From: an uncultured Candidatus Saccharibacteria bacterium | Lineage (GTDB): Bacteria > Patescibacteriota > Minisyncoccia > Phycocordibacterales > UBA9973 | Length of the DNA stretch: 64,000 nt | Direction of reading: 5' to 3' | Assembly (NCBI GenBank): GCA_964384645.1 | Contig: CAYLKL010000003.1 | Span: forward strand, 9,101-73,100 | In this document: piece by piece, positions 2,325-59,730 of the stretch | Position numbering within the stretch: the stretch's first letter is position 1 | How the letters are laid out: each line of letters starts with the position of its first letter | Notes under the pieces: generated by a model | Database searches by the model: none | Told to the model about the DNA's origin: nothing | What the model saw: the letters and a program-made list of their open reading frames with translations, nothing else | Position numbers and translations under genes: made by a program

Positions 2325-5063
2325 CTAAGCAGAATAACGACTTAAAATTTCAGCTTCGACAATTTTACGATCTTTTCCATATTTCAAATGTGAAAGCTCT
2401 TTAATCTTTTGAGCTAATTCTCTATTTCCTTCAGTTGGCTTCATTGTCCTAAGACTAAATGGTTTTGCAGGAAATCCATTTACGAGCATTTTTACATATG
2501 CATTTCTATTTTCTAATTTTTGTAAATCAAGTCCAGTAAAAGTAGGCTCAAATTGTTTTGCCAAAAAGTCTGCATCGTCTACTCCGATTCTAAAAGCAAC
2601 CATAGAGCCAACGTTTCCAAAAACAGCATTTTTTATACCTTCATCTATTTGAGCAATATATTGATGCGCTAAGTTAAGTCCTAGTTTGTATTTTCGAGCT
2701 TCCGAGAGAATCTGACTGATAGAATTTGTTGTGACATTTTGAAACTCATCGATGTAAAGATAAAACGGGGGCAAATCCTTACCAATTGAATCAACCCTAG
2801 AAAGTGCCGCCATAAACAATTTCCCAACAATCACAAGACCCAAAAGGTTTGAGTTTATCTCCCCCAACCTTCCTTTTGAAAGATTTACTAAAAATATTTT
2901 CTTACCGTCAATTATTTCCCTGAAATTCAGCGATGACTTTTGTTGAACAACAATTGGTCGCATTATTTCATTTGTTATAAAAACATCAAATTTATTGGTT
3001 ATGTAATTTACGTAGTTTGCCAAAGATGCTTCTCCGGTCGTCTTTTCTGCGCTTTCCCAAAATTGCCTAATTATTGGATTTACACATTTAGCAATCAATC
3101 TTTGTCGATATTCTTTGTTTGCCAAAACTCTACCAATTTCAAGAAGCGTCGCCCCTTCGGCTGGGTCATCCATTGCAAGTAGGGCTGAATTTCTAAAATA
3201 TTGCTCAAAAGCTGGACCCATACTTTCTGGAGTTCCTCCAAAAAGTTTTCTAAAAATAGAAAGAAGTTCATCGACAACAAAAGTCTTCTGCTCAGGAAAA
3301 CGAACATCATATTCCAACATATTAAGACCAATTGGCCTATCTATTGAACCTGGATCAAAATAAATAACGTCATCAGCTCGCTCTGGTGGAATATTTGCAA
3401 GAATATCTTCTATGTCATTTCCGTGCGGATCAATAAAACAAACACCTTCGCCATTTAAAATATCTTGAACAATCATATTTTTCAAAATGGTTGTTTTTCC
3501 AGTTCCAGTTTGTCCAATAACATACAAATGCCTAAGTCTATCTTCGGGAGAAAATTTTACTTCGGTTTCTTGTCCACGATAAGAATTTATTCCAAGCAAT
3601 ACCCCCTTATTAGAAACTTCTGCTGGCGCAGGAGAGAGAGTCATCGCACTTTGTGCAATGTGAGGAGAATCAATTGTGTTCTCTGGCATATGAACCATGC
3701 TAGCAATTTCTCTTTGTGTTAAAGGTAAATTATTTTCTTCTTTAAAAATTCTATAAGAAAAAGAGTGTAGTTCATCAAATAATCTAGATTCACCCACGTT
3801 TTGGAAAACTAATGAATTTGAAGTTGTGTCAGTGAACTGATTGAAAGCAGAAGATATTTCCCTTACCATCTGCTCTGTTCTTTCTTTTGTTGATGCTGAT
3901 ACAACTATACGAATATTTGCAGACAAAATAGTTGAAGTAAGCTTCTTGTTCATTTTTTCTATATTACTCCGTAGTTTTTCATCATCTTTTTTGTCGTCCT
4001 TATTTTCATCTTTTTTAACAGGAGCAGAAAAGAAATCTTTAGCTGCATTTTTCAAAGCACCACCCCAAGAATCTAATCCACTATAAACTTCTTTAACATT
4101 TCCGCCATTTCTAACTTGATCAAGAATTCTGTTGTATCTTTTTATAAAAGCATCTCCAACAGGCTTTACAACAAATTGAATAGACGCACCCTCTCCTGGT
4201 TGATTGAACTTTGAAAAAGCGGAAATTATTGAAGACATCGGATCTGTAGCACCATCTTCAAACGAACGAAGCGGAAAAACAGGTAGATCAGTTAGTTTGG
4301 CAATAGACGCAACGGCATAGCCTTGCTCATTAAAAATATTGTAATCATCTGGAACCTCTTTTATTTTTGCATCTGGATAAACCGCTAACATGTTTTTCTC
4401 AAAAAGATCAGCACGTGAAGCTGGCACAGCTACGTACAAAGACATGTTCGATCCATGATTCTCTACAGCAAGTTCAAGCGTGAAATATTCTTTTCCTTCT
4501 ATAGTCCTCCCGTCACCTACAGCCTGCATACCAGAGAGAAATTGCTCCATCCCTGCAATCAAAGATGCTGGAGTCTTTTTTTCTTTATCAAAATTTGGCA
4601 AACTAACTTCAAAAAGTCGCATAGAAAGACCCTTATTTTCTTCAAGCCCTTCTCTTAAGTCGCTCGGTTTTTGTCCAGTTATTAAATATTGAACTAAGAA
4701 TCTATGGAAATCATCATCTAGATGAGGATTATTCATCTTCTTTAAAACAGAAAAAGTGTTTTTTAAACCTTTTTCTAGCATCAATCCAAAAAACTCTTCT
4801 ATTTTTCTATCGTGAGTCTCTGGTGTAAGACTTAAAACGATTTGCTCCGCCTCTTGTCTTGGAATTAAATTATCAGGTATTACTTTCTCTGCAGGAACGA
4901 ATTTATAAGCGTCGATTGCGTCTTTGGCAACTTGCTCGAGTGGAATATTCTTTCTTTCCTCTGTTAGTTGTTTTTCTCTATTACTAATATGTTCTCGCAA
5001 ATAGCTAATCTCCTCTTCAGGAGTAGTAAATTTTGGTAGATCTTTGAAAAATTGATTTTCCAT
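2325..5063 (-). CDS. TraG/TraD/VirD4-family (T4SS coupling-protein-like) P-loop ATPase with a ~500-aa N-terminal non-membrane domain
   Basis: Walker A VIGQTGTGKTT and Walker B LYIDEFQN in the C-terminal half. No N-terminal TM helices. 912 aa. Confidence 0.55.
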   Translation of the reverse strand: MENQFFKDLPKFTTPEEEISYLREHISNREKQLTEERKNIPLEQVAKDAIDAYKFVPAEKVIPDNLIPRQEAEQIVLSLTPETHDRKIEEFFGLMLEKGLKNTFSVLKKMNNPHLDDDFHRFLVQYLITGQKPSDLREGLEENKGLSMRLFEVSLPNFDKEKKTPASLIAGMEQFLSGMQAVGDGRTIEGKEYFTLELAVENHGSNMSLYVAVPASRADLFEKNMLAVYPDAKIKEVPDDYNIFNEQGYAVASIAKLTDLPVFPLRSFEDGATDPMSSIISAFSKFNQPGEGASIQFVVKPVGDAFIKRYNRILDQVRNGGNVKEVYSGLDSWGGALKNAAKDFFSAPVKKDENKDDKKDDEKLRSNIEKMNKKLTSTILSANIRIVVSASTKERTEQMVREISSAFNQFTDTTSNSLVFQNVGESRLFDELHSFSYRIFKEENNLPLTQREIASMVHMPENTIDSPHIAQSAMTLSPAPAEVSNKGVLLGINSYRGQETEVKFSPEDRLRHLYVIGQTGTGKTTILKNMIVQDILNGEGVCFIDPHGNDIEDILANIPPERADDVIYFDPGSIDRPIGLNMLEYDVRFPEQKTFVVDELLSIFRKLFGGTPESMGPAFEQYFRNSALLAMDDPAEGATLLEIGRVLANKEYRQRLIAKCVNPIIRQFWESAEKTTGEASLANYVNYITNKFDVFITNEIMRPIVVQQKSSLNFREIIDGKKIFLVNLSKGRLGEINSNLLGLVIVGKLFMAALSRVDSIGKDLPPFYLYIDEFQNVTTNSISQILSEARKYKLGLNLAHQYIAQIDEGIKNAVFGNVGSMVAFRIGVDDADFLAKQFEPTFTGLDLQKLENRNAYVKMLVNGFPAKPFSLRTMKPTEGNRELAQKIKELSHLKYGKDRKIVEAEILSRYSA

Positions 5064-15827: not shown

Positions 15828-16754
15828 ATGCAATACACTAAAACACCCCAAAAATTACCCGTTTCTCCATTAGGAAATGGAGCTGGAATCATAAAAACAG
15901 AAGATGATTTCAACAAGTTTCTGAAAATTGAAGATATTCCAGAAATATTGATTGGAAGCATTACTTCCCTTCCCCGTGAAGGCAATTCCGGAAACACTTT
16001 TTATTCTGGGCCAGGATATACACTAAATGCACTCGGGTTGCCGAACCCCGGAATTCAGTACTGGCTAGAAAATGATCGACTGAAAAAATGTGCAGAAAGG
16101 GCGCATAAAAAAGAAAAGCAAGTTGGGATAAGTATTGTTGGATTCAAAGAAGGAGAACTTGGAGAAATCGCCCAAATTGCCGAAGATGCTGAGATTGATT
16201 TCATTGAGATTAATGCTGGATGTCCTAATGTCTGGGCCGAAGGTAAACAAAAAGAAATTATAAGTTTCTCTTCTGAGGCATTATCCTTTGCTCTAGGAGA
16301 AATTTATGGGGCGACCGAAAAAATAAAAATTGGCTTCAAACTTTCTCCATATTCAAACCCCGGAGAACTTGAGAGAATTGCTAAATTCTTTAATCTCACC
16401 CACAAAGCCTTTGATAGAATCTCTTTCATTACCACCTGTAACACTTTCCCAAATTCATTCTCAGAAGATGAGGAAGGAAATCCACGAATAAGTGCCAATA
16501 ATGGTTACGGCGGAATGGCTGGAGAAGCAATCATTGCAATTGCTCTGGGGCAAGTAAAACAATTCAAAGCAGTCTTAATACCCGAAATTAAAATAAAGGG
16601 AGTCGGCGGAATAACAAAAGGAAGTGATGTAAGGAATTTTTTTAAAGCAGGAGCCTCGATGGTTCAGATTGTTTCAGCTTATTACCGAAACGAAGACCTT
16701 AGTGTCTTCTCTCGCATAAGGGCAGAGTACGAAATGCTTACAGAAAAAGTGTAA
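15828..16754 (+). CDS. pyrD: Dihydroorotate dehydrogenase, class 1 (Cys active-site base)
   Basis: FIEINAGCPN active-site motif and IKGVGGITKGSDVRNFFKAGASMVQIVSAYY C-terminal FMN-binding pattern. Confidence 0.7.
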   Translation: MQYTKTPQKLPVSPLGNGAGIIKTEDDFNKFLKIEDIPEILIGSITSLPREGNSGNTFYSGPGYTLNALGLPNPGIQYWLENDRLKKCAERAHKKEKQVGISIVGFKEGELGEIAQIAEDAEIDFIEINAGCPNVWAEGKQKEIISFSSEALSFALGEIYGATEKIKIGFKLSPYSNPGELERIAKFFNLTHKAFDRISFITTCNTFPNSFSEDEEGNPRISANNGYGGMAGEAIIAIALGQVKQFKAVLIPEIKIKGVGGITKGSDVRNFFKAGASMVQIVSAYYRNEDLSVFSRIRAEYEMLTEKV

Positions 16755-16767
16755 TACCTTATAGGGC

Positions 16768-16798
16768 AAAACGGCGCAGTAGTGCGCCGTTTTTTTAT
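16768..16798 (+). terminator. Intrinsic terminator after pyrD
   Basis: Stem acggcgca-gtag-tgcgccgt followed by TTTTTTT. Confidence 0.75.
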
Positions 16799-16850
16799 TT
16801 GCAATAAAAAAATAAAAATGTAGGATGAAGCAAACTTTAAAAAATATCAT

Positions 16851-17894
16851 ATGAAAGAAATCCAAATTATAAGACCTAGTGATATGCATTTACACTTCCG
16901 TGAAGGAGAAATGCTAAATCTTGTAGCTCCGCACACCGCACGACATTTCTATTATGGACTCGTTATGCCGAACACGACCAACCCACCTATTCGAACTGGA
17001 GAAAATGCAAAAAATTATGAGGAGCAGATTTTATCTGCAACAAAAGATTACCCTCATTTCATTCCAGTCATGACGATTAAAGCCTATGACACCGATGAAC
17101 ACCTAACAACTCCAGAGGTTGTAGAGGGAGCATATTCAAATGGCGCCAAAGCAATAAAAGTTTATCCTCAAGGCGCGACTACTAATTCTCATGATGCTGT
17201 TAAAGATATTAAAAAACTTTACCCTGCATTTGAAAAAGCAGAAGAGCTCGGAATGAGAGTATGTCTCCACGGAGAAAAACCAGATGATGAAATAATTGCT
17301 CTGGAATGGGAAAGACTTTTCTATAGTGATGTAAAAGAGTTATATAAAACTTTTCCAGAATTACGAATTATCTTTGAACACATTACTTGCGAAAGCACTA
17401 TTGGTTTCATTCAAGATGCACCGGACAATGTAGCAGCTACAATTACTGCCCATCACGCACTGGTTAATTTCAATCATCTCGCAGGTGGAATGTTGCGCCC
17501 CGACTTGTACTGCAAACCTCTACTTAAATCCCCGCAGGATCAAAAAGCGCTCCGGAAAATTATGATAAGTGGAAACCCAAAATTCTTCCTGGGAACAGAC
17601 AGTGCTCCACACGTTGAAGAGAAAAAATATTGTGACCATGGATGTGCAGGAGTTTATACTGCCCCAATTGCAATGTCTCTTTACACCCAGATCTTCTATG
17701 AAGAAGGTGAGCTATCTAGACTCGAGAATTTTTCATCAGTTTTTGGACCAAGGTTTTATGGTCTTGAAATTCCAACTGAAAAAATTACCGTTATAAAAGA
17801 AGAATTCATCCCTAATAAATTTTATCAAGAAGGAAACCTTAAGATAAATAATTACTGGGGTGGTATGAAGCTCGACTGGAAAGTTAAAGAATAA
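16851..17894 (+). CDS. pyrC: Dihydroorotase, type II (E. coli PyrC-like)
   Basis: SDMHLHFREGEM HxH metal site. ...KVYPQGATTNSHD..., RIIFEHIT, ...LGTDSAPH...CGCAGV are collinear with E. coli PyrC as recalled. Confidence 0.85.
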   Translation: MKEIQIIRPSDMHLHFREGEMLNLVAPHTARHFYYGLVMPNTTNPPIRTGENAKNYEEQILSATKDYPHFIPVMTIKAYDTDEHLTTPEVVEGAYSNGAKAIKVYPQGATTNSHDAVKDIKKLYPAFEKAEELGMRVCLHGEKPDDEIIALEWERLFYSDVKELYKTFPELRIIFEHITCESTIGFIQDAPDNVAATITAHHALVNFNHLAGGMLRPDLYCKPLLKSPQDQKALRKIMISGNPKFFLGTDSAPHVEEKKYCDHGCAGVYTAPIAMSLYTQIFYEEGELSRLENFSSVFGPRFYGLEIPTEKITVIKEEFIPNKFYQEGNLKINNYWGGMKLDWKVKE

Positions 17895-17898
17895 ATTG

Positions 17899-17927
17899 AA
17901 AGAGACCTGAAATGGTCTCTTTTTTAT
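17899..17927 (+). terminator. Intrinsic terminator after pyrC
   Basis: Stem agagacc-tgaaat-ggtctct followed by TTTTTT. Confidence 0.75.
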
Positions 17928-17984
17928 TTGCCCCAAAATAGTAGGTGTGATAGAAATATGAAAATTCATTTAAAAACAAAAACT

Positions 17985-18725
17985 ATGTCAAAACTACAAA
18001 GAAATGCAGAAGCCCTCGCTGAATGGGCTCTTAAAATTGGAGCAATAAAAATAAACCCGAAAGATCCATTTAAGTGGGCTTCCGGCTGGAGAAGTCCAAT
18101 TTATAATGACAATCGAATGTCGCTAGGCTATCCCGAGATGTTTCAAAGAGTCGTTGAGTCTTTTTCAGACCTTCTATCTGAAACTTTCCAAGGTGACTGG
18201 AAAAGAGAAATTGATGTAATTATGGGAACATCTACGGCTGGAATCCCGCACGCGACTATTCTTGCTTATCTTCACGGACTTCCGTTTGGATACATAAGAG
18301 ATAAAGCTAAAGACCACGGTCTGAAAAATCGGATAGAAGGAATAGATGTCGACAAAGATTTATCCGGCAAAAGAGTTTTGCTTATTGAAGACCTTATTTC
18401 AACTGGCGGAAGCAGTGTAAGCGCTGTGCAAGCAATAAGAAACGCCAATGGAAAAATCGATCATTGCATTTCAATTTTCAATTATGGTTTTCCAAAAGCC
18501 AAAGAAATGTTTGCCGGAAATGCTTCATTTTCAAAAGATGGAGTAGAACGACTTTCTGAACCATGCCAGATTTATTCACTCTTGGATTACCCCACTCTTC
18601 TTGAGGTTGCTATCAAAGTAGATTACATAAGCGAAGAAGACAGGGCTATGCTTGATGAATGGAGTAAGGATCCGGAAAGCTGGAGTAATAACTGGAAATC
18701 TCAGAACGAGAAAGTTTCAGCGTAA
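17985..18725 (+). CDS. pyrE: Orotate phosphoribosyltransferase
   Basis: VLLIEDLISTGGSSVSAV PRPP-binding motif and GWRSPIYND. The ORF track starts at 17928; the likely start is the ATG at 17985 (MSKLQRN). Confidence 0.8.
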   Translation: MSKLQRNAEALAEWALKIGAIKINPKDPFKWASGWRSPIYNDNRMSLGYPEMFQRVVESFSDLLSETFQGDWKREIDVIMGTSTAGIPHATILAYLHGLPFGYIRDKAKDHGLKNRIEGIDVDKDLSGKRVLLIEDLISTGGSSVSAVQAIRNANGKIDHCISIFNYGFPKAKEMFAGNASFSKDGVERLSEPCQIYSLLDYPTLLEVAIKVDYISEEDRAMLDEWSKDPESWSNNWKSQNEKVSA

Positions 18726-18737
18726 GTTTTGAAATAA

Positions 18738-18772
18738 AAACAGGGAGACACAAATGTGTCTCCCTTTTTAAT
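18738..18772. terminator. Bidirectional intrinsic terminator between pyrE (+) and pyrF (-)
   Basis: Stem gggagacac-aaat-gtgtctccc with an A-run upstream and a T-run downstream. Confidence 0.8.
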
Positions 18773-18781
18773 TTAAATTGA

Positions 18782-19660
18782 TTAGTGAATAGATTGAGCG
18801 CGTAGTTCCATAACTTCTTTACGATATTCTGTTATGAGATCATGGGTCTCTTGAGCTGCTTCTCTGATGTTGCCTTTTGTGAAAATTATTCCACTCGAGG
18901 AATTAATAATGACTCCTGTTCCAAAACGATCTAGTCCATTTTCCACCACCTGCTTAAGGCTTCCTCCTTGTGTGCCTACACCAGGAATAAGAATTGGAAT
19001 ATCCCCTATAATCTCCCGAATTATTTGTAATTCTTCAGGATATGTTGCGCCGGCCACCAACAAACAATTACCATTTATGTTCCACTTATCACGCACGGTT
19101 TCTGCCACAACTTCAAAAAGTTTTTTGAATTGGGAATTACCAACCCTTACTTCTAAATCCTGAAATTCACCTGCTCCAGAATTAGAAGTCCGACAAAGCA
19201 CAATTACGCCCTTATCTTTTTGGTCAAGAAATGGCTTCATGGCTTCGCTTCCAAGATACGGATGTACCGTAATAGCATCGGCTTCGAGTTCATCAAAAAT
19301 TCCAGCAATATAGCCCATATTGGTATTCCCAATATCAGCTCTCTTTCCGTCCAGAATAATTGGAACATCTGGTGCAACATCATCCAGATATGCTTTTGTT
19401 CCAAACAATGCGGCAATTCCAATTTCTCCGTGAGCTTCGTAAAAAGCAATATTCGGCTTATAGGCACAAACAAGATCTTTTGTTTGATCGATCACCATTT
19501 TATTGAATTCGATAATAGTATCGAGTATTCGATGTCGGCTGTCTATAAATTTGTCGTGGATGAATTGGGGGATTTTTTTGTATTCAGAATCAAGCCCAAC
19601 ACATAAAAATTTATCTTCTGCCCATTTGGCGCGAAGCATTTCCATAAAGTTTCTTTCCAT
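18782..19660 (-). CDS. pyrF: Orotidine 5'-phosphate decarboxylase (long type-2 form)
   Basis: FLCVGLD, KPNIAFYEA and ILDGKRADIGNT (DxKxxDIxxT) motifs. Confidence 0.75.
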   Translation of the reverse strand: MERNFMEMLRAKWAEDKFLCVGLDSEYKKIPQFIHDKFIDSRHRILDTIIEFNKMVIDQTKDLVCAYKPNIAFYEAHGEIGIAALFGTKAYLDDVAPDVPIILDGKRADIGNTNMGYIAGIFDELEADAITVHPYLGSEAMKPFLDQKDKGVIVLCRTSNSGAGEFQDLEVRVGNSQFKKLFEVVAETVRDKWNINGNCLLVAGATYPEELQIIREIIGDIPILIPGVGTQGGSLKQVVENGLDRFGTGVIINSSSGIIFTKGNIREAAQETHDLITEYRKEVMELRAQSIH

Positions 19661-22694: not shown

Positions 22695-23882
22695 TTATTT
22701 AATAACTTTAGTTACAACTCCAGCTCCAACAGTTTTACCTCCTTCTCGGATAGCAAATCTTTGTTGATCTTCAAGTGCAACAGGGGTAATAAGCTTAACT
22801 TTAAAAGTAATTGTGTCTCCTGGCATAACCATTTCCTTTCCTTCTGGAAGGGTAACTTCTCCTGTTACGTCAGTTGTTCTGATGTAGAACTGAGGCTTAT
22901 AACCTTTAAAGAAAGGTGTGTGACGACCTCCTTCTTCTTTTTTCAAAATGTAAACTTCTGATTCGAATTCATCGTGTGGAGTAACTGAAGCTGGCTTTGC
23001 CAAAACTTGTCCTCGTGTGATGTCTTCTTTCTTAACTCCTCGTAGAAGAATACCGGCGTTGTCTCCGGCCATACCTACATGTAGAGACTTGTTGAACATT
23101 TCAATACCAGTAACTGTAGTTTTTACAGTGTCCTTAATACCGATAATTTCAATTTCTTCTCCAACCTTTACAACACCTCTTTCAATTTTACCTGTAACAA
23201 CAGTTCCTCTTCCTTCGATAGAGAAAATGTCTTCAACTGGCATAAGGAAAGGCTTTGTAACGTCTCTCTCTGGTACTGGGATGTAAGTATCTAGCGCTTC
23301 TGTAAGTTCTAGAACTTTCTTTGCCCATTCGTCGTCCATTGAAGATGCTTCAAGAGCTTTTAGTCCTGAACCTCTTATAACTGGACAATCCTTATCAAAA
23401 CCTTGCTTTTCAAGGATTTCTCGGATTTCTTCTTCAACTAGATCGATAAGATCTTTGTCTTCAACCATGTCGCACTTGTTTAGGAAAACGATGATCTTTG
23501 GCACTCCAACTTGTTTTGCCAAAAGAACGTGTTCTCTTGTTTGTGGCATAGCTCCATCAGTTGCTGCAACTACTAGAATTGCACCGTCCATTTGAGCTGC
23601 ACCTGTGATCATGTTCTTGATGTAGTCAGCGTGACCTGGAGCATCAATGTGAGCATAGTGACGAGCTGAAGTTTCATACTCGTTGTGCGAAATGTTAATA
23701 GTAATACCTCGCTCCTTTTCTTCTGGAGCGTTGTCGATATCACCGATTCCCTTCATTTTAACAGTCTGTCCAGACATGTTAAGAACGTGCAGGATCGCTG
23801 CAGTTAGGGTAGTTTTTCCGTGGTCAACGTGACCAATTGTTCCCACGTTTACGTGAGGCTTGTCTCTTTTAAAATCTGCCAT
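22695..23882 (-). CDS. tuf: Elongation factor Tu
   Basis: [18 protein letters not shown] and NKCD G-motifs. 395 aa. Confidence 0.97.
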
Positions 23883-24095
23883 AATTATTCTAAATTGGTT
23901 GCAACGCTTTTATACGTGCAACATATTAGCTGGTAATAGTAACCGCAATGATTTTTTGACCAAAAATCAAGTTTTGAGGATTTTTACAATAAAAAAAGCC
24001 CCAATGAGCGATTGGAGGTATATTAGCAGAAATGTTTATACTGTGTCAAATTCCCTTTTACCCCTTTTTACCGGAAAAAGGGGTGCAAAACCTCT

Positions 24096-24233
24096 CGCCG
24101 CATAAAGTTTTATTATGTTCACGTAATTCGTCTTCGCAAAAACTTTAAACTCTCCTTCGGCAAGCCCAAGATCAAACAGAAAAGTTTTAGTCTTCGGACT
24201 GATTGGTTCACATATATAAAACTTTATGCGGCG
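24096..24233. repeat. 138-bp element bounded by perfect 18-bp terminal inverted repeats (MITE-like, or a long-stem structured RNA)
   Basis: cgccgcataaagttttat (24096-24113) is the exact reverse complement of ataaaactttatgcggcg (24216-24233). The 102-bp interior contains small hairpins (cttcggcaag, gtcttcggac). No obvious target-site duplication. Confidence 0.45.
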
Positions 24234-24260
24234 AAGGACGACAAAACTTCTTAAGATAAA

Positions 24261-24290
24261 ATAAAAAACTCTCCGAAGGAGAGCTTTTGT
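24261..24290 (-). terminator. Intrinsic terminator after the SDR-like gene
   Basis: Minus-strand stem ctctcc-ttcg-ggagag followed by TTTTTT. Confidence 0.7.
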
Positions 24291-24304
24291 GACAATTTAG
24301 CTTT

Positions 24305-25036
24305 TTAGTCGGCTTTTAGTCCCACAGTTGTGATTACTTCATAGGCGAAATCTTCCGGGGTTTGAATTTCATCCCAAGGAGGATTTTCTCCAATGGTAAT
24401 TTCATTGAATTGTTTATGGGCCAAAGGACTGTTTATAAGTCCCGGTTCAAAAAGATAGACTTCTTCAAAAATCCCCTCTTCCTTTAAATCTTTAGCTAAT
24501 TTGGCAACTGCTTTCATAGAAGCAATATATCCCTCTTCTTTGTAGCCAGTCTTAAGATTAAGCCTTCTAGGGTCATCTTCAGCAAAATTTGCAGCATGAG
24601 AACCAATTAAAATAACTTTTGTCTTCTTATTAATGTTTTTTGGAAGCTTTTTAAGAGATTCAATTACAGCAACTTTAGTCTTAAAGTTTGCATTCATGAG
24701 ATCATTGGCTACTTGCTCTGCAGTTTTTGGATTTTCCATTCGCTTGTCGTTATCCCATTCAAAACTCCCCGCAGCCAAATCTACTGCATCAAAATAAACA
24801 TCAACGGCCGACATGTTAAAAATAAACACATTAACAGAATTTGAATCCTCCAAATCAAATCCATCATACAAATACACTCGTAAATCGCGCTTACCATCTA
24901 CCTTAAACATTTCTTCTGCCTTCTTTATATCTCTAACCATGGCGTAGACTTCATAGCCAAGTCTAAGAAATTTTTGAGCAATTTCGAAGCCGACACTACC
25001 TGTTACTCCTCCCACTAATGCTTTTTTAGTTTCCAT
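24305..25036 (-). CDS. NAD(P)-binding Rossmann-fold protein (SDR / NmrA-like), inserted between fusA and tuf
   Basis: N-terminal LVGGVTGSVGFEIAQKFLRLGYEVYAMVRD GxxGxxG dinucleotide-binding motif. 243 aa. Confidence 0.55.
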   Translation of the reverse strand: METKKALVGGVTGSVGFEIAQKFLRLGYEVYAMVRDIKKAEEMFKVDGKRDLRVYLYDGFDLEDSNSVNVFIFNMSAVDVYFDAVDLAAGSFEWDNDKRMENPKTAEQVANDLMNANFKTKVAVIESLKKLPKNINKKTKVILIGSHAANFAEDDPRRLNLKTGYKEEGYIASMKAVAKLAKDLKEEGIFEEVYLFEPGLINSPLAHKQFNEITIGENPPWDEIQTPEDFAYEVITTVGLKAD

Positions 25037-25283: not shown

Positions 25284-27425
25284 TTATTTTCTGTTCTTTA
25301 TGATTTCATCAGCGACGTTATTTGGAACAATGTCGTATCTCAAGAATTCCATTGTAAATCCCGCTCGTCCTTCTGTCATCGAACGAAGGTTTGTCATGTA
25401 TCCGAACATTTCAGAAAGTGGTACCACAGCTTTGATTGCTTGGTTTAGACCTCTTTCTTCTACGCCATCAATAAGACCTCGCTTTGCAGAAAGTGAACCT
25501 GTTACGTCTCCTAGGAATTTATCTGGTGTAACAACCTCAACTTTCATCATAGGCTCCAATATAACTGGTTTTGCTCGATTACAAGCCTCTTGTACTGCCA
25601 TTGAAGAAGCGATTTTGAAAGCCATTTCGTTTGAGTCAACTTCATGGTAACTTCCGTCCCAAAGTTCAACAGAAATATTAACCATTTTGTAACCTGCTAA
25701 AATTCCACGATCAAGACCCTCCTTAAATCCTTTTTCACAAGCAGGTATATATTCTTGTGGAATAACACCTCCTTTGATTGTATTTATGAATTCAAATCCT
25801 TCACTTCTCTTTGTGTTCTTTGGAAGATCGTCTTTGTCTACTGTCATATCCATTGGTTTAACCTTAATTCGAACGTGTCCGTAGTTTCCTCGTCCTCCTG
25901 ATTGCTTGATATATTTTCCTTCAGCTTCAGAATTTGCTGTAATTGTTTCTCGGTAAGCAACTTGAGGTCGCCCAACATTTGCTTCAACAGAAAATTCTCT
26001 CTTCATACGATCCACAATAATTTCAAGGTGAAGTTCTCCCATACCAGCAATAATTGTTTCCATAGTTTCAGGATCACTCATTACTTTAAATGTTGGATCT
26101 TCATCAGAAAGTCGTGAAAGCGCAAGACCCATTTTTTCTTGGTCAGCTTTTGTCTTTGGTTCAATACGCATAGAGATAACTGGTTCTGGGAATTTAATCT
26201 TATCTAGTACGATTGGGTTTGTTTCATCACAAAGTGTGTCAGAAGTTTTTGTATCCTTTAGACCAACTGCTGCCGCAATTTCTCCAGCATAAACTTTCTT
26301 TACTTCTTCTCTTTCATTCGCTTGCATGATAACGATACGTCCAAGTCTTTCCTTGTTTCCAGTTCGTGGATTGTAAATATATGAACCAGCTTCAACGGTT
26401 CCAGAGTAAACTCTAAAGAATATAAGTTGACCAACGAAAGGATCTGTCGCAACCTTGAAAGCAAGTGCAGAGAAAGGTTCAGCGTCAGACGGACCTCTTT
26501 CAAGTGGCGCGTCAGTGTCAGGGTGTGTTCCATTAACAGCCTTGATATCAAGTGGACTTGGAAGATAATCAACAACGGCGTCGAGAACCAATTGCACACC
26601 TTTATTTTTTAGAGCAGAACCAGCAAAAACTGGGAAAATTTCATTTGCAATAACAGCCTTTCGAGCAATCTTTTTTAATGTTTCAATGTCAGGAGTATTG
26701 CCGTCTAGATAAGCAGTCATCATCGCCTCATCATTTTCAACGATTTTCTCAATAAGTTCAGCGTGATACTTTTCTGCATCAGCCTTAAGGTTCTCCGGAA
26801 TATCTTTTTCTATAACTTTGTTACCCATATCCCCTTCGAAATAATAGGCCTTCATTTTTAGAAGGTCTACAACACCTTCGTGCTCACCTTCAAGTCCAAT
26901 TGGAATTTGAAAACGAACTGCTTTAGGAGAAAGTCTTTCTTTGATTGTTTTGAATGAGTGCTCAAATGATGCACCTGTTCTATCAAGTTTGTTTATGAAA
27001 CAAATTCGAGGAACTTTTGCTTCGTCAGCATAACGCCAGTTTGTTTCAGATTGTGGTTCTACACCTGCAACACCGTCGAAGACCACAACCGCACCGTCGA
27101 GAACTCGAAGAGATCGCTTTACCTCAACGGTAAAGTCGATGTGTCCTGGAGTATCAATAATATTGAATCGATGTTTTTTTGCCTTATCTCCCGGAGCATA
27201 AGTTGGAGTCCAAAAACAAGAAACAGCCGCAGCGGTAATTGTAATACCTCGTTCTTTTTCTTGTTCCATCCAGTCAGTAGTAGCGCCTCCATCGTGCACT
27301 TCTCCGATTTTGTGTGATTGTCCTGTGTAGTACAAAACACGCTCAGATGTAGTAGTTTTACCCGCATCAATGTGCGCAATAATTCCAAAATTTCTTAATT
27401 TTTCGATAGGGTGTTCTCGTTGCAT
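25284..27425 (-). CDS. fusA: Elongation factor G
   Basis: [22 protein letters not shown] and NKLD G-motifs. The ORF-track start at 27476 is over-extended; the likely start is [15 protein letters not shown]. Confidence 0.95.
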
Positions 27426-27523
27426 AAATGATTGTTTATAAAATATTTTTAATAAAAAAAGACTTCGGAAAGTCAAGGATAACTATACGGCAAGACGCTG
27501 TTTTTTGCAAATAAAAAAGGGGC

Positions 27524-39822: not shown

Positions 39823-42800
39823 TTAGAAAACTGAAACTCTGGTTATCGTAATTATTGGCGTTGAGGCCACTTCTGCACCCTGAGCGTTATATCCTTTTGC
39901 TTGATATTGAATATCTTTTGTTATAAGCCCTAACGGTCTCCATGTGCAGTTAAAATTAGGTGCAGAACTTGACGTACACTCTCTTGTCAATCCATTGTTA
40001 TACCTAAAATATTTTACCTTTGTTATTGGCCCGCCAACTGAAACTTTCATAGTGTAAACTTGGCCACTTTGTACAGTAAGGCCGTTTGTTGGGAAAACCC
40101 ATGAAATATAAGTTCCAGCTAAAACAGACACATTAACAGCAGTTGATGTCGAAGTATTGCCCACGGCGTCAATAGCGATAGCAGTTATTGTATGATTGCC
40201 ACCTGATGCCCCTGTAGTATCCCACGAAACACTATAAGGTGAAGTTGTGTCTATTCCAACAGACACACCGTCTACTTTGAATTCAACAGAAGCAATGCCT
40301 GAAGCGTCGGTTGCGTTTGCAGATAAGGTTACAGTTGTTCCTACTGCCACACTTGACCCGTCTATTGGTGCACTAATTGAAACAGTTGGAGGTGTTGTTT
40401 CTGGACCACAACTCCCCAAATTCAAATTAGAATTTTCAGTAAGTATGAATTTATCAAGTTGGAAGTTAGCTGAAAGTCCTGTGAATGTGAAAGTGTGCGC
40501 AGTGTTTGGGGTAACAGAAGAGAAAACGATAGGTGTACCTGCTTGGTTTTTGTTACACCAACCAAAAGTTGTTGAGTTTGAAGAAATTGTTTGAGCTGTA
40601 CCTGAATCTACTTTTACTGTAGCAGTTGATGTTCCAGTTGCTGATTTTGCGAAATACCATAGGTAATATGTTTTTGGAATAGAACCTGTTGCGTCTCTTG
40701 GTTCAAATTTGTAAGTTGTTGATCCAGTGCTTGGGTTTATGTAAGTTGTGAAGTTTGTGTAGTCTCCCGCTGGTGTACCTGCTGGAGTTGTAGTAGTTCT
40801 TGATGCAGAACCTGTGTCATAGACTTCTGCTTCAAAACTAAAGTCCTTTGACCAGTACCATGGGTGTGATGATTCGTGCCATGCGTCTAGTTGGTAAAAT
40901 ACTGGTGATGCTCCTGTTTTATCGTAGATGTAGGTGGAGCCTTGGCGTCTTGAATTAAATTTCAAAACTTCCCCAGAAAGATTTATGTTAACTGGTGCAA
41001 TTTCTGGAACAGCACCATCCATATTAGTATATTGATTTAAGTTAGTTGCAATTAAATATTTATTTACAGAATTATCTTTTCTAACAGTAGTAAATGCATC
41101 CATTCTTCCACTCTTGAAAGCGTAACCCGGAGTAGTACTAGAAGAAGCATAATCAAGAGGTAAATCACCAGTCATAACATTACTATTTTTATAGAAAGAA
41201 TCTACATAACTAAATACAGCTTGAGAATAAGAAGGTATCATATTCTGCCAAATTTTTTGAGCAGGCCAACCATCTTCACTTGTTCCAACTCGATTAAAAT
41301 ATCCAGTATGGAAAAATTCCGATCCCATATTGTTTACGTTTTTAGAAAGACCCAACCATTGACCAGGTGAAATATTTTGCTCAGCTTTCAAATCCCAACC
41401 TGGAGACATGTAAGCTCCGAAGAATTTATCTCCTGTTGCTTGTTGTCTGCCCATTACTTTTTGGATAAAGTACATACCGTTCCAAGCAGAAATTTTACTT
41501 CTCCAGTTAGATGGCCATCTTGGATAAAAGTCAGGCGTTGCATAGTATTGGCCATTTATAGGAGATTGCATTTTTCTTGCCTCACTCCACTTAAATCTTG
41601 TAGCTTCTTCGTATCCATCTACTGCGTACTCTAAATATTTTGAACCAGCAAGTCCTGGGATAGACAAAATTATATCTCTATATGTTTGATTGGCCATATC
41701 TGAAACGGTTTTCGCAACGTAAGACTGTGCATCCATTCCAGAAGAACTTATTGCAGAACTAACTGCTGGATCAGAATTTAGAGCATTTGTTTCGTACTTA
41801 ACTAAAATTTCACCATTCTCACTTATTAGATCAATTTTTGGTGCTGGCTTTGTTAATTGATTCACAACGCTATTAACCATACTTTTCATAGCATTTCCGT
41901 CTGGTGTGTATTGTGAAAACTGAGAACTAAGAGGTCTCCAAACTTTTGAAGTTGTTACGTTTCCGTTTATATCAATAAACTGACCAGAAGAATTTTGTAA
42001 ATAATACTGGTTTCCAAATCCTTGGTACCTCAAACAAGGCATATTAGATCCACCTCCACAAGTTGAAGCACCTGAAAGCTGAGCTCTTAAAATAACCAAC
42101 TGAGTTGGTAAAGTTGGATTTGAATTTGAATAACTTATCAATCCAGGTGTCCCTGAAACACCTGTGTCCAAGTTACTACTTGTAAGACTTGGAGCTAGAT
42201 CTAAATAATAATTCCATTTCTTTGCCATTTCACCCGCGATTGAAACTCCAGCCTGAACTTGAGCAGCTGAGTGCGTGTAAGTAAAATCTGTTGGTGTAAA
42301 GTGTGCTAAATAATCTAGGTCGTTCCAGTTAAAATTTCTAAGTAATGTATGCCCTGTTTTATATCTAGGCAATGGAACACTTTGAAGTTGAGTTAACACA
42401 GTTGGTGGTGTTGTTGAATATGTTGTGTAAGGAGAAGTTCCAAGCTGTGCTCCTGGCAAATAATCCATTGTGTCAAAAGATGACGAAACAGCTTGAGCAT
42501 TTGGGGTATTTGTAATATTTGTTACCCAAGAATAAGACTGTCCGTTTGTTATTGAATCTAAATAGTGCTGATATATTAGGTTACCAGGCAAATCATTACT
42601 CCATAGTGCAAATTGATCTATTGCACCAACATATCTTCTTTCGGCGGTACTGTTACCAAAAAACTTTATGTCACCGTTTGAAGATTTTATTTTATTAGTA
42701 TTCGCAACTGTTTTTGAAAAACCAGTTGGCAAAACTCCATCAACCCAAATTTCTTTTACTCCATTTGAGTATTTAAAAACCATATGATGCCAATTACCGT

Positions 42801-43362
42801 CGTTGTAATATGCTGGAGATTTTGGCCCAACTCCATCTAAGGCAATTTGGAAATCGTCTGAAACTGAATTTGTACCAGTAGTTCCAGTTGTTGAAAATCT
42901 AATATAAGGAACAGAAGTACTTGCTACAGGACTCTCAAATAAGATAGAAAAAGAATTATCAGTAGTTGTCATAAAATTTGAAACCAATATGTCGTCAGGT
43001 TTCCAAATAAATTCAACAGCAAAAGAAGAAGAAGCTGAAGTTGGTGTTTTCCCAATTGTTTGATAACAACCAGAACTGCTTGTATAGTTCAAATACTTCC
43101 CAACTGGACCATTTGATTGTTGAACAAATGGACAACTCGTCCCATTTGTAAATGTCGAAGATCCGATGGTCGCAGAGTTCCAAGGATTTCCTTCAAATTG
43201 CCAGTACGAATAAGGCTGAATCGGAGTTGTTACAGCGTTATACGTTGCAGCCAACTGTCCCCCAAAAAATCTAGATAAATTAAATGGAGACAAAAAATCT
43301 ATAACTAATAAAATTACTAATAATAATACAACTGATAAAATTAAACTCTTTTTCTTTTTCAT
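39823..43362 (-). CDS. Giant surface protein 1 (1179 aa): signal anchor, LamG/concanavalin-A-like domain, large conserved central domain, C-terminal Ig-like domains
   Basis: N-terminal TM. DGNWHHMVF LamG-type motif. C-terminal ...VTLSANATDASGIASVEFKVDGVSVGIDTTSPYSVSWDT Ig-like repeats. Paralog of the downstream gene. Confidence 0.6.
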   Translation of the reverse strand: MKKKKSLILSVVLLLVILLVIDFLSPFNLSRFFGGQLAATYNAVTTPIQPYSYWQFEGNPWNSATIGSSTFTNGTSCPFVQQSNGPVGKYLNYTSSSGCYQTIGKTPTSASSSFAVEFIWKPDDILVSNFMTTTDNSFSILFESPVASTSVPYIRFSTTGTTGTNSVSDDFQIALDGVGPKSPAYYNDGNWHHMVFKYSNGVKEIWVDGVLPTGFSKTVANTNKIKSSNGDIKFFGNSTAERRYVGAIDQFALWSNDLPGNLIYQHYLDSITNGQSYSWVTNITNTPNAQAVSSSFDTMDYLPGAQLGTSPYTTYSTTPPTVLTQLQSVPLPRYKTGHTLLRNFNWNDLDYLAHFTPTDFTYTHSAAQVQAGVSIAGEMAKKWNYYLDLAPSLTSSNLDTGVSGTPGLISYSNSNPTLPTQLVILRAQLSGASTCGGGSNMPCLRYQGFGNQYYLQNSSGQFIDINGNVTTSKVWRPLSSQFSQYTPDGNAMKSMVNSVVNQLTKPAPKIDLISENGEILVKYETNALNSDPAVSSAISSSGMDAQSYVAKTVSDMANQTYRDIILSIPGLAGSKYLEYAVDGYEEATRFKWSEARKMQSPINGQYYATPDFYPRWPSNWRSKISAWNGMYFIQKVMGRQQATGDKFFGAYMSPGWDLKAEQNISPGQWLGLSKNVNNMGSEFFHTGYFNRVGTSEDGWPAQKIWQNMIPSYSQAVFSYVDSFYKNSNVMTGDLPLDYASSSTTPGYAFKSGRMDAFTTVRKDNSVNKYLIATNLNQYTNMDGAVPEIAPVNINLSGEVLKFNSRRQGSTYIYDKTGASPVFYQLDAWHESSHPWYWSKDFSFEAEVYDTGSASRTTTTPAGTPAGDYTNFTTYINPSTGSTTYKFEPRDATGSIPKTYYLWYFAKSATGTSTATVKVDSGTAQTISSNSTTFGWCNKNQAGTPIVFSSVTPNTAHTFTFTGLSANFQLDKFILTENSNLNLGSCGPETTPPTVSISAPIDGSSVAVGTTVTLSANATDASGIASVEFKVDGVSVGIDTTSPYSVSWDTTGASGGNHTITAIAIDAVGNTSTSTAVNVSVLAGTYISWVFPTNGLTVQSGQVYTMKVSVGGPITKVKYFRYNNGLTRECTSSSAPNFNCTWRPLGLITKDIQYQAKGYNAQGAEVASTPIITITRVSVF
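40407..40951. repeat. Copy A of an intragenic duplicated block (identical to 45627-46171)
   Basis: 40432-40951 is 100% identical to 45652-46171 at a constant offset of 5220. Near-identity extends back to ~40261 / 45481. Confidence 0.9.
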
Positions 43363-43400
43363 AACTTATATAAGTATACAACTTTTGCAACTAAAAAAAT

Positions 43401-43430
43401 AAAAAACTCTGGATATCCAGAGTTTTTTAT
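43401..43430 (-). terminator. Intrinsic terminator after giant surface-protein gene 2
   Basis: Palindrome ctctggat|atccagag followed by TTTTTTT. Confidence 0.7.
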
Positions 43431-43440
43431 TTTTTTAGTT

Positions 43441-46400
43441 TTATTTAACTTTAATATTTTTTGTTGTTGTATTTCCGGCAACATCAACCGCTTGAACATT
43501 TATTGTAGAAGTTCCAAACCCCCACAACACAGACGGAACCGTAAAGCTGCAACTGTAAGAACTTGGTGGTGTTGTTGCACTTGTAAGTGTACATTTTGGA
43601 GTAGTAGATGTTGCACCCAAGAAGAATTTAACTTGCTTTACAGAAACATTATCTGTAACTGTTGCTATAAATGTTACAGGACTTGTGTTTGATACATTTG
43701 CGTTATTAGCGGGACTTGTGATTGAAACAGTCGGAGCAGTCGTGTCTGCCACTGTTGTTGAAATAGATACTGAAACAGCTGAAGAAGTAGAAGAATTTCC
43801 AGCATTGTCAGTTGCAATTGCAGTAATTGTATGACTTCCAGAAGTAAATCCTGTAGTGTTCCAAGAAATACTATACGGTGAAGTGGTTAATGTTGATCCA
43901 TATTGATTTCCATCAATATAAATTTTGACATTTTGTATACCAGAAGCATCACTTGCGTTCGCTGTTATTGTAGTATTAGATCCACCAGTCACTACAACTC
44001 CGTTAGCTGGACTTGTAATTGAAACAGTTGGAGCGGATGTATCAGTTCCCACTGTGATAGTTTCGGAAGTTGTATTATTTGCCTCATTTACTTCAGCAAA
44101 TCTATTAATATCATCAACAACCGCCGTTATGTTATGTGAACCGCCGGTCGCGTTCCATGCTGTAAATATACCAGTATCCGCTGACTGATTTGAACAATAA
44201 GCAGAGCCTGTACCCATACCAAGATTTACAGTTTTTCCAGCTCCAATTGAAGTTGTTTGAGCGTCTGAACAACCCAAAGCTACTCCATCCATCATAAACA
44301 TAACACCAACAACCATACCTTCTGGAGTGCCAACTGTTCCCTGGTTTTTAACAGTTGCAGTAAATGAAACATTTGCACCAACACTAGGACTTACAGGTGA
44401 CCAAACAATATCAGTCACAAGAACATCTGGTTGTCCTGTTGCATTTGAAACAGTCACTGAAACATTTGCTGAAGTTGCATTGTTTCCAGCTGCATCAAAT
44501 GCTTTTGCTTTTACTGTATGTGTTCCGTTTGAAAGAGTTGAACTATCTAATGTAACAGAATATGGAGCAGATGTATCAGTGGCAAAGGGTGATGTTGATG
44601 AATCAGTAAAGAACTGAACAGTAGTAACCCCAACATTATCACTCGCATTTGCACTAACGGTAACTAAACCTGAAACAGTTGCACTAGGTGTTGGTGCGGT
44701 AACTGAAACAGTTGGTGCAGTTGTGTCTGCGGGTGGTGTTGTTACGTTGTTTACCGTAACACCAAAGGCTGTAGTTGTTGTTGAGTTTGAACCTGGAACA
44801 GTAACTTTGTCGTAAGCTTTTGCTGTAATTTGATAACTACCGTTTGCAACACCTGTTGTATTCCAAGAACAAGAAAATGTTCCTGATGTTTGCCCCGTAG
44901 CTGTTGCTGTACAAATTAGAACTGTTCCTCTGTAAAACTCTATATGATTTATTCCAGTTGTGTCTGTTGCAGAAGCTGTCATTGTAACAGTGCCAGAAAG
45001 TGTTGCTCCAGAAACTGGAGAAGTTACCGTCGTCGAAGGACCCGCAGTATCAATATTTATTGATACTTGATTTGAAGCTGATGAAAAATTACCAGAACTA
45101 TCTTTTGATTTAACAATATACGTATGACTAGCATTTGCTGACGGTGTGTCTGTATAACCAAGGTTTGTTACAGCGCTTGTATTAATAGCAGTTGTAGAAC
45201 CATCTCTATATATATAGTAACCTTCAAGACCTGAACCAGAATCAGTTGATCCACCCCAAGATAAAACCGCACTGTTTGATTGTCTTGTAACAGAAAGTGT
45301 TGTTGGTGTTGTTGGAGCAACTGTGTCAGGAAGAGAAACTGTAATACTAACTGAAGAGTTTGCAGTATTACCAACAGTGTCAGTAGCTGTCGCTGTTATT
45401 TGATGTGAGCCATTCGTAACACCCGTTAGTGACCACGAAACACTATAAGGTAAAGTTGTGTCTATTCCAACAGATACACCGTCTACTTTGAATTCAACAG
45501 AAGCAATGCCTGAAGCGTCGGTTGCGTTAGCCGACAGAGTCGCTGGTCCAGTAGAAATTGTTGCTCCAGTTGTTGGCGCAGTAACTGAAACAGTTGGTGC
45601 TATTGTGTCAGTTGGAGTAGTTCCACCACAACTCCCCAAATTCAAATTAGCATTTTCAGTAAGTATGAATTTATCAAGTTGGAAGTTAGCTGAAAGTCCT
45701 GTGAATGTGAAAGTGTGCGCAGTGTTTGGGGTAACAGAAGAGAAAACGATAGGTGTACCTGCTTGGTTTTTGTTACACCAACCAAAAGTTGTTGAGTTTG
45801 AAGAAATTGTTTGAGCTGTACCTGAATCTACTTTTACTGTAGCAGTTGATGTTCCAGTTGCTGATTTTGCGAAATACCATAGGTAATATGTTTTTGGAAT
45901 AGAACCTGTTGCGTCTCTTGGTTCAAATTTGTAAGTTGTTGATCCAGTGCTTGGGTTTATGTAAGTTGTGAAGTTTGTGTAGTCTCCCGCTGGTGTACCT
46001 GCTGGAGTTGTAGTAGTTCTTGATGCAGAACCTGTGTCATAGACTTCTGCTTCAAAACTAAAGTCCTTTGACCAGTACCATGGGTGTGATGATTCGTGCC
46101 ATGCGTCTAGTTGGTAAAATACTGGTGATGCTCCTGTTTTATCGTAGATGTAGGTGGAGCCTTGGCGTCTTACTTTGAATTTCAAATTTTCTGTTGGTGT
46201 AACTGTTGTTGCAGGATATGTATCACCACCAAAAGATATGTCAGCTAGTGATTCTTCTGCGGCATTACCTTGATAATTTGACCAAGGGTTTTCCATACCT
46301 GTTATGACAAATCTATTAGCACTGTTTTGCTTTCTGGCAACAACAAGTTGGCCAGGATTTCCAGTATAAAATCTAAATCCAGGATTTGAGTCTGGCGGGT

Positions 46401-59237: not shown

Positions 59238-59410
59238 CCGGTAGTGAAAAATGGCATTAAAATTAAAGCCATTTATTAAATTAACTTCTAAATAAAATTT
59301 CCAAACCTTTAATATATTTAAAATCCGAACTAATAGAATTTTAAATGGCAATGCCATTTTCTAATAACCGGACAGGTAAGTGAAGACACTTTAACACAGT
59401 TTCCCGGAAA

Positions 59411-59452
59411 AACAAAAAGGCTCATATTTTTTAAATATGAGCCTTTTTGTTT
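59411..59452. terminator. Bidirectional intrinsic terminator
   Basis: 12-bp stem aggctcatattt / aaatatgagcct followed by a T-run; an A-run precedes it. Confidence 0.8.
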
Positions 59453-59454
59453 TT

Positions 59455-59730
59455 CTATTCTATTTCTACTTCAAGCGAATTAAAGTCTGTTGACTCAAAA
59501 TCTGCTTCTATTGATTCAATTTCAGTAGAATCAGATTGTGTACCCATAGAGTCTGCTGATTGCTCATTTTGACTCATACTTTCCTGTGTATTGTTCATCT
59601 TATTTTCACGAGATTCACCACCCAGTAAAATATATCCCAGAACAACAATGATTACTATTGCAACTATTGACCACAAAAGTGAATTAGACTTATTCTCAAC
59701 CACTTGAACCGAATTATTGTCTCCTTCCAT
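59455..59730 (-). CDS. Small single-TM protein with an acidic Ser/Glu-rich C-terminus
   Basis: TM helix LLWSIVAIVIIVVLGYILLGG. 91 aa. Confidence 0.4.
   Translation of the reverse strand: MEGDNNSVQVVENKSNSLLWSIVAIVIIVVLGYILLGGESRENKMNNTQESMSQNEQSADSMGTQSDSTEIESIEADFESTDFNSLEVEIE

Follow-up and report, generated by a model that had tools for sequence, protein, structure and literature searches.

A perfect inverted repeat upstream of tuf in a CPR bacterium is a single-locus hairpin, probably in the tail of a variable cassette slot that holds a diversity-generating retroelement in relatives

The element described here lies in a 422-nt gap within a minus-strand gene array of the window, by which we mean the whole 64-kb stretch of DNA that was analyzed. 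Read along the minus strand, the array comprises fusA (25284–27476), an SDR-like gene (24305–25036), the gap, tuf (22695–23882), rpsJ, rplC, and rplD. The SDR-like gene, which encodes 243 aa with Pfam matches to adh_short and Epimerase, is the left neighbor of the element and is itself located within a variable islet. The EF-Tu sequence groups the organism with Paceibacteria/Nomurabacteria-like CPR bacteria. No tRNA or tmRNA gene was found by ARAGORN in the 64-kb window, and the Rfam 15 covariance models, applied to the whole window at gathering score, matched no family; both searches were blank although the ribosomal-protein cluster with tuf and fusA and a pair of very large ORFs (39823–48618) fall within the window. 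A group of pyrimidine-synthesis-type genes (dihydroorotate dehydrogenase, amidohydrolase, phosphoribosyltransferase, and OMP decarboxylase) sits within or beside the ribosomal-protein cluster at 15828–19660, and OMP decarboxylase directly follows rplB in relatives as well. A 912-aa ORF at 2325–5063, with weak matches to HerA/DUF87 and to the TraG/TraD C-terminal ATPase, may be a conjugation- or defense-type NTPase.

In minus-strand order, the gap contains a terminator-like hairpin, T1, followed by a long hairpin, a second short hairpin, H2, a sigma-70-like promoter, and a leader of ~130 nt. T1 (24264–24288, minus strand) was identified by a terminator scan and has a UUCG loop followed by a U-run on the minus strand; comparison with the loci of three relatives, L037, L036, and L007, indicates that it took the place of an ancestral, degenerate terminator of the SDR-like gene. 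H2 (24060–24084, minus strand) emerged from the repeat search, with arms ACCCCTTTTT and AAAAAGGGGT. The tuf promoter (24020–24049, minus strand; TTGACA, 18 nt, TAATAT), located by a promoter scan, is invariant across relatives and forms the fixed right-hand boundary of a slot whose contents vary. The promoter and the ~170 nt that lead to the tuf start (23883–24052, minus strand) are nearly unchanged in relatives (L002, L005, L009, L037, L042, and L043), and L038, more distant with an EF-Tu of 88%, shares the tuf-leader layout but not its sequence. A terminator-like hairpin with a T7 run (24017–23999) begins just 3 nt past the tuf −10 hexamer, and the consensus fold of the leader displays little covariation. 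From its sequence, this hairpin could be an attenuator or a terminator for upstream cassettes.

The initial annotation had reported cgccgcataaagttttat at 24096–24113 and its exact reverse complement at 24216–24233, enclosing 102 bp. Both are present, and a repeat search combined with an exact-match search lengthens the perfect arms to 19 nt, at 24095–24113 and 24216–24234 (plus-strand coordinates), with 102 nt measured between them. With one bulged base the stem reaches 24091–24237, and it continues inward past a few mismatches to give a hairpin of ~147 nt, referred to here as the rod, in which an outer stem of ~28 pairs closes a 92-nt interior. The longest spaced inverted repeat obtained by chance had 15-nt arms, in 40 simulations of the 64-kb window under a first-order Markov model that preserves its dinucleotide frequencies, and the rod has a folding z-score of about −6.5 on both strands; for these two reasons the inverted repeat is real and beyond chance. 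The interior, with z-scores of +0.4 and −0.3 on the two strands, folds on par with shuffled sequence. The structural signal therefore comes entirely from the outer stem, and the interior, in which small hairpins had been proposed, has no significant structure of its own. Folding is stronger on the minus strand (−56.7 vs. −49 kcal/mol), and G-U pairs number 4 and 5 on the two strands, without strand bias.

Two further perfect palindromes were observed in the window, one of 26 + 26 nt at 43389–43440, where it fills most of the 78-nt gap between a 1179-aa and a 1725-aa ORF, and one a 23 + 23-nt hairpin at 59407–59455. Each is rich in A/T around a short G/C core and, by its sequence, looks like a bidirectional terminator.

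Two further ideas about the rod were considered and rejected. A type I toxin or other small peptide would have to be encoded by a 30-codon ORF at 24211–24119, which fills the interior but has a stop at codon 4 in the L003 allele (C to G at 24201) and no Shine-Dalgarno sequence. An inverted duplication of T1 into the center of the rod, suggested by the common word CTCTCCTTCGG, is not significant (53 of 1000 shuffles match it).

The loci of relatives, anchored on EF-Tu and SDR-like homologs and taken from other assemblies, reveal how variable this slot is. The element is carried, among the assemblies compared, only by the window, by L001 (identical, partial), and by L003 (97.7% identical); L003 differs from the window at 22 positions in 2789 nt overall, four of them within the hairpin. 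All three carriers have it, in one orientation, in the gap that separates the SDR-like gene from tuf. L002, L005, L009, L037, and L042 lack it; in these the terminator of the SDR-like gene directly adjoins the ATTTGACA of the tuf promoter, and the relatives without it include strains with 99% identical EF-Tu. L037 provides an empty allele: its SDR-like gene is of the same type as that of the window and 85% identical to it (that of L036 is 87% identical), and the window, like L003, has an extra segment of ~237 nt that L037 lacks, running from 24288 to 24052 on the minus strand. The left junction of this segment, AAATTGTCACA at 24289–24299, repeats the tuf −35 region AATTTGACACA (24042–24052) imperfectly in direct orientation and also resembles the −35 region ATATTGACAAA of the promoter of the retroelement cassette in L036 described below; these likenesses are short matches and only suggestive.

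Elsewhere the slot holds different genes. L006, L007, and L008 have opposite-strand ORFs of 435 or 441 aa (L007/L008 2241–3736; L006 250–1557), joined in L007 and L008 by a 52-aa ORF, and neither the 435/441-aa nor the 52-aa products have a match in Pfam or NCBIfam. The SDR-like gene is itself only 38–39% identical between strains whose EF-Tu sequences are 96–99% identical (window vs. L002 1202–1891 and L009 3069–3788), the value being 39% for a strain with 99% identical EF-Tu. From this pattern, the islet between two highly conserved genes, fusA and tuf, appears to be exchanged by recombination.

On its size and architecture, the element had been likened to a miniature inverted-repeat transposable element (MITE), that is, a non-autonomous transposon inserted upstream of tuf with further copies elsewhere in the genome. 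The likeness to bacterial MITEs and palindromic intergenic repeats (Correia, ERIC, RUP) is genuine in that the element is ~140 bp long, intergenic, bounded by perfect 19-bp terminal repeats, able to fold as a long hairpin, and present in some strains and absent from others. In contrast to those families, however, in the sequences searched it occupies a single locus and has no target-site duplication, no family members, and no cognate transposase. No direct repeat adjoins the arms, in agreement with the initial annotation; the flanks read GCAAAA before the CCT that opens the element and ACGACAAAAC after the AGG that closes it, and their sole shared word, CAAAA, is 4 nt off on one side. The statement that the window holds no second copy also stands, since blastn, an arm search allowing 3 mismatches, and a window-wide inverted-repeat scan detected neither another element nor another arm in the 64 kb. 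A Pfam scan of 28 window ORFs, namely the SDR-like ORF and 27 others of at least 150 aa, revealed no transposase or recombinase domain.

The wider collections, scanned with exact 18-nt or 12 + 12-nt words that diverged copies would escape, yielded only chance matches. A 12 + 12 arm pattern matched five times in genome contigs (one genome per GTDB species), in unrelated phyla and with no similarity in the interior, and the 18-nt arm matched 21 loci in JGI metagenome contigs, all attributable to chance. Three scans of IMG/VR returned nothing related, the single match being to an interior 18-mer in a GC-rich virus, again by chance. Blastn against phage and plasmid collections gave no match. The empty-site comparison points the same way: L037 lacks 24052–24288 rather than 24091–24237, and since this indel of ~237 nt is larger than the repeat unit, it is not bounded by the repeat ends. 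In addition, one arm corresponds to plain, non-repeated sequence in L043 and L036 (see below), and the repeat was therefore built in place. We accordingly find the MITE interpretation unsupported and highly improbable.

An inverton, in which a site-specific recombinase would flip the 102-bp interior and a promoter carried on it, is in our view scarcely credible. The geometry fits, with repeats of at least 19 bp around ~100 bp upstream of a gene, and the interior contains a weak promoter-like match (9/12), but that match is at chance level, all three sequenced copies (3/3) are in one orientation, the Pfam-scanned ORFs of the window include no recombinase, and tuf has its own invariant promoter.

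The most informative occupant of the slot is found in L036, where a complete diversity-generating retroelement (DGR) lies at 2485–4953, between the SDR-like gene and, presumably, tuf. Its target gene encodes 244 aa, a product without a Pfam match, and the last 120 nt of the gene constitute the variable repeat (VR, 3096–3215), which recurs as the template repeat (TR) at 3463–3582; all 14 mismatches between the two (14/14) fall at TR adenines. A hairpin is located past the VR at 3246–3273. The reverse transcriptase (RT) of 289 aa has an RVT_1 domain and the motifs GLPLGNVTSQ and YCDD, and its best match among solved structures is 8ub7_A (2.8e-34), which we take to be the Bordetella phage DGR enzyme. 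In L043 (EF-Tu 95%), the contig starts with the C-terminus of an RT of the L036 type (77% identical); a spacer of 508 nt separates it from tuf. The comparison of DGR-bearing relatives covers two loci, one (L036) whose contig ends inside the tail downstream of the RT gene and one (L043) whose contig begins inside the RT gene.

Both of these tails contain a perfect palindrome, of 20 + 20 nt in L043 (353–392) and of 15 + 15 nt in L036 (5060–5089). The palindrome of L036 coincides with the end of its contig, and the Logan contig L001 stops inside a hairpin of the window type; these contig ends suggest that assembly breaks at such structures.

A DGR clade restricted to Patescibacteria/CPR is carried by CPR bacteria (PMC8144416). 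The extra segment in the window resembles DGRs, those of the Patescibacteria/CPR clade included (PMC8144416), in that it is homologous to the post-RT DNA of relatives and occupies the same chromosomal slot. It differs from them in that the window has no RT, TR, VR, or target gene, and the tail is not a defined DGR part such as the TR, VR, IMH, VR-proximal hairpin, or spacer RNA upstream of the RT. A tblastn search with the L036 RT found nothing in the window, which likewise encodes no relative of the L036 DGR target protein. The possibility that the insert contains an orphan template repeat was rejected, as the insert, scanned with adenines masked against each strand of the window, gave 0 matches.

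A retron msr-msd noncoding RNA was also considered. Inverted repeats (a1/a2-like) around ~100 nt and an RT gene nearby in relatives recall such an RNA, whereas the RT of the relatives is DGR-type and upstream rather than immediately downstream, and the window has no RT. This candidate was rejected: the gene next to the element is tuf, and the interior has neither a significant fold nor a stable msd-like hairpin.

The homology between the extra DNA of the window and the post-RT tails consists of several aligned blocks. A conserved unit that contains one repeat arm (24192–24244, minus strand) is homologous to post-RT sequence at 252–298 of L043 and about 4999–5051 of L036. By blastn, window 24241–24195, which comprises this arm and ~20 nt of the interior, is 85% identical to L043 252–298 over 47 nt, and the L003 allele is 91% identical. 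The unit lies ~50 nt past the RT stop codon in both L043 and L036, and the score of the L036 alignment was matched by 2 of 500 shuffles. A partial extra copy of the unit, ATTTTATCTTAAGAAGTTTTG at 24242–24262 (minus strand), is homologous to the left arm of a long hairpin in L043, with an alignment score that 0 of 500 shuffles matched. Alignment with L043 is collinear along the segment: the score of the pre-rod portion was matched by none of 500 shuffles (0/500), as was that of H2 with the promoter (0/500; H2 itself also 0/500), and the right part of the rod, made up of interior and the other arm (24086–24188, minus strand), is weakly homologous to L043 393–484 (local score 34, 2/500), an interval that takes in the right arm of the L043 hairpin.

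The L043 hairpin is itself instructive. In L043 the ~47-nt unit is tandemly duplicated as a direct repeat, and the second copy pairs with the homolog of the other window arm to form a long hairpin (arms 307–338 and 444–475) at the equivalent position. When the rods of the window and L043 are anchored on their AAGTTTT/AAAACTT core, six pairs are changed on both sides and still pair and four positions of the L043 stem are unpaired, a comparison that rests on two lineages, with uncompensated changes in the stem of L003. H2, as GCTACTTTT and AAAAGTAGC in L043, is conserved in position, and four of its pairs are changed on both sides with pairing kept.

These observations bear on the alternative raised in the initial annotation, a structured RNA with a long closing stem. 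A hairpin, or local structure, fits better than a transposon and has a positional counterpart in L043; an RNA family is not indicated, as an Rfam E-value search of 23850–24350 returned, at the element, only plant microRNA hairpin models at chance level, and any action as an RNA would be putative. The proposed check by folding and covariation points both ways, with the strongly folding outer stem and the six compensatory pairs on one side and the shuffled-like interior and the uncompensated L003 changes on the other, and templated conversion of the arms is another possible cause of the compensatory pairs.

The perfection of the 19-nt repeat can be traced to two adjacent bases. At 24229–24228 the window has GC, exactly complementary to the opposite arm, where L003, L043, and L036 all have TT, which makes TT the ancestral and GC the derived state. 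To judge from these alleles, the perfection of the repeat is a recent, local product and not the signature of transposon ends. Two neighboring substitutions that together produce complementarity are characteristic of templated quasi-palindrome correction (the Ripley model). The rod resembles quasi-palindromes corrected by template switching in this respect, as the two-base change from TT to GC perfects the repeat and the arms evolve in concert across lineages; it differs from them in that the mechanism is here read from the pattern alone, and selection on a hairpin gives an identical pattern. For the TT-to-GC change, likewise, templated correction and compensatory substitution under selection would look alike.

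Selection is central to a different interpretation, in which the rod is a selected cis-acting hairpin of the minus-strand RNA, serving, in the interval that separates the tuf operon from the upstream cassette, as a terminator or insulator, a 3′-end stabilizer, or an RNase III processing site, with its DGR association in relatives incidental. Consistent with such a role are the positional counterpart in L043, which persists with six compensatory pairs despite diverged arms, the four compensatory pairs in H2, the restoration of pairing by the TT-to-GC change in the window, and the greater stability of the minus-strand fold. The rod would also resemble intrinsic terminators and 3′-end stabilizing hairpins in its position at the end of a transcription unit, beside T1 and the conserved short hairpin H2. 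Its stem, however, is far longer than that of an intrinsic terminator, closes an unstructured loop of 92 nt, and has no U-run of its own after it. The rod may, moreover, hardly be transcribed, because the strong terminator-like T1 precedes it and the tuf promoter comes only after it. It is missing from many close relatives, some of them strains with 99% identical EF-Tu, two unpaired stem positions are tolerated in L003, the G-U counts are equal on both strands, and concerted evolution of the arms by template switching mimics covariation. Taken together, we judge this interpretation to be unlikely, albeit one to be kept in mind: the compensatory changes in the rod and H2 could come from real selection on a functional hairpin, in which case the term "relic" would be too dismissive.

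A role tied to the retroelement was also weighed, namely that the tail (unit, rod, and H2) is a working cis element of the CPR DGR lineage, such as a 3′ module of an RNA, a cassette boundary, or a site of recombination, perhaps serving in trans a DGR located elsewhere in the genome. The tail is conserved beside the RT gene in two DGR loci, and both tails have long perfect palindromes (20 + 20 nt in L043, 15 + 15 nt in L036). Against this, the window has no RT, target gene, or VR counterpart, and at 76 viral DGR loci long inverted repeats are no commoner in the 450 nt downstream of the RT than in control segments. The notion that a long palindrome after the RT is a general feature of DGRs was rejected on the same 76 loci, to which the tail has no sequence similarity either. 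We know of no such tail element described for DGRs, and we consider a working element of this kind very unlikely. That the tail is a new functional cis module of a CPR-specific DGR lineage, a 3′-end structure or a signal directing cassettes to the position immediately ahead of the tuf promoter, of which the window would hold an orphan copy after DGR loss, is likewise a doubtful proposition.

Homology and collinearity with the post-RT tails, confinement to a single locus, and polymorphism of the slot are matters of observation. What they probably add up to is that the inverted repeat is the stem of a single-locus hairpin within ~237 nt of strain-specific noncoding DNA, located between the SDR-like gene terminator and the conserved tuf promoter, which would represent the tuf-proximal tail of a cassette slot that is of the DGR type in relatives. 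There the slot holds a complete DGR, and the homologous tail directly follows the RT gene. In the lineage of the window the DGR genes would have been lost, or would never have been gained beside an older spacer; they are absent from this lineage, and the tail would therefore be orphaned. Either the tail is part of the DGR cassette or it is older than the DGR.

Within this tail, the arms would have been kept complementary by templated (quasi-palindrome) correction, by selection, or by both, and the perfect 19 bp would have arisen when the ancestral TT turned to GC in one arm. The rod may simply be a structural relic whose palindromic form is maintained by template switching. If it is functional, the rod, T1, and H2 would together form a 3′-end, terminator, or insulator structure for transcripts of the upstream cassette, and in an insulator role they would protect the promoter from which the essential operon of tuf and ribosomal-protein genes is transcribed. 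From sequence and position, the most likely putative function, if there is any, is that of a 3′-end or insulator hairpin for upstream-cassette transcripts.

As a feature, the rod is of a known kind, a quasi-palindromic hairpin that a cassette has left between genes, and by itself it matters little: it is specific to its lineage and gives no sign of mobility or of a conserved RNA family. That cassette loss can leave hairpin-rich, MITE-like tails should be borne in mind when mobile elements in metagenome-assembled genomes are annotated from repeats. The turnover of the slot, and the DGR found in it, are more notable by-products of the analysis than the hairpin. The element serves as a marker of a hotspot of cassette swapping: the small interval separating fusA from tuf in these tiny CPR genomes may contain SDR-like alleles just 39% identical, a DGR, or unknown genes.
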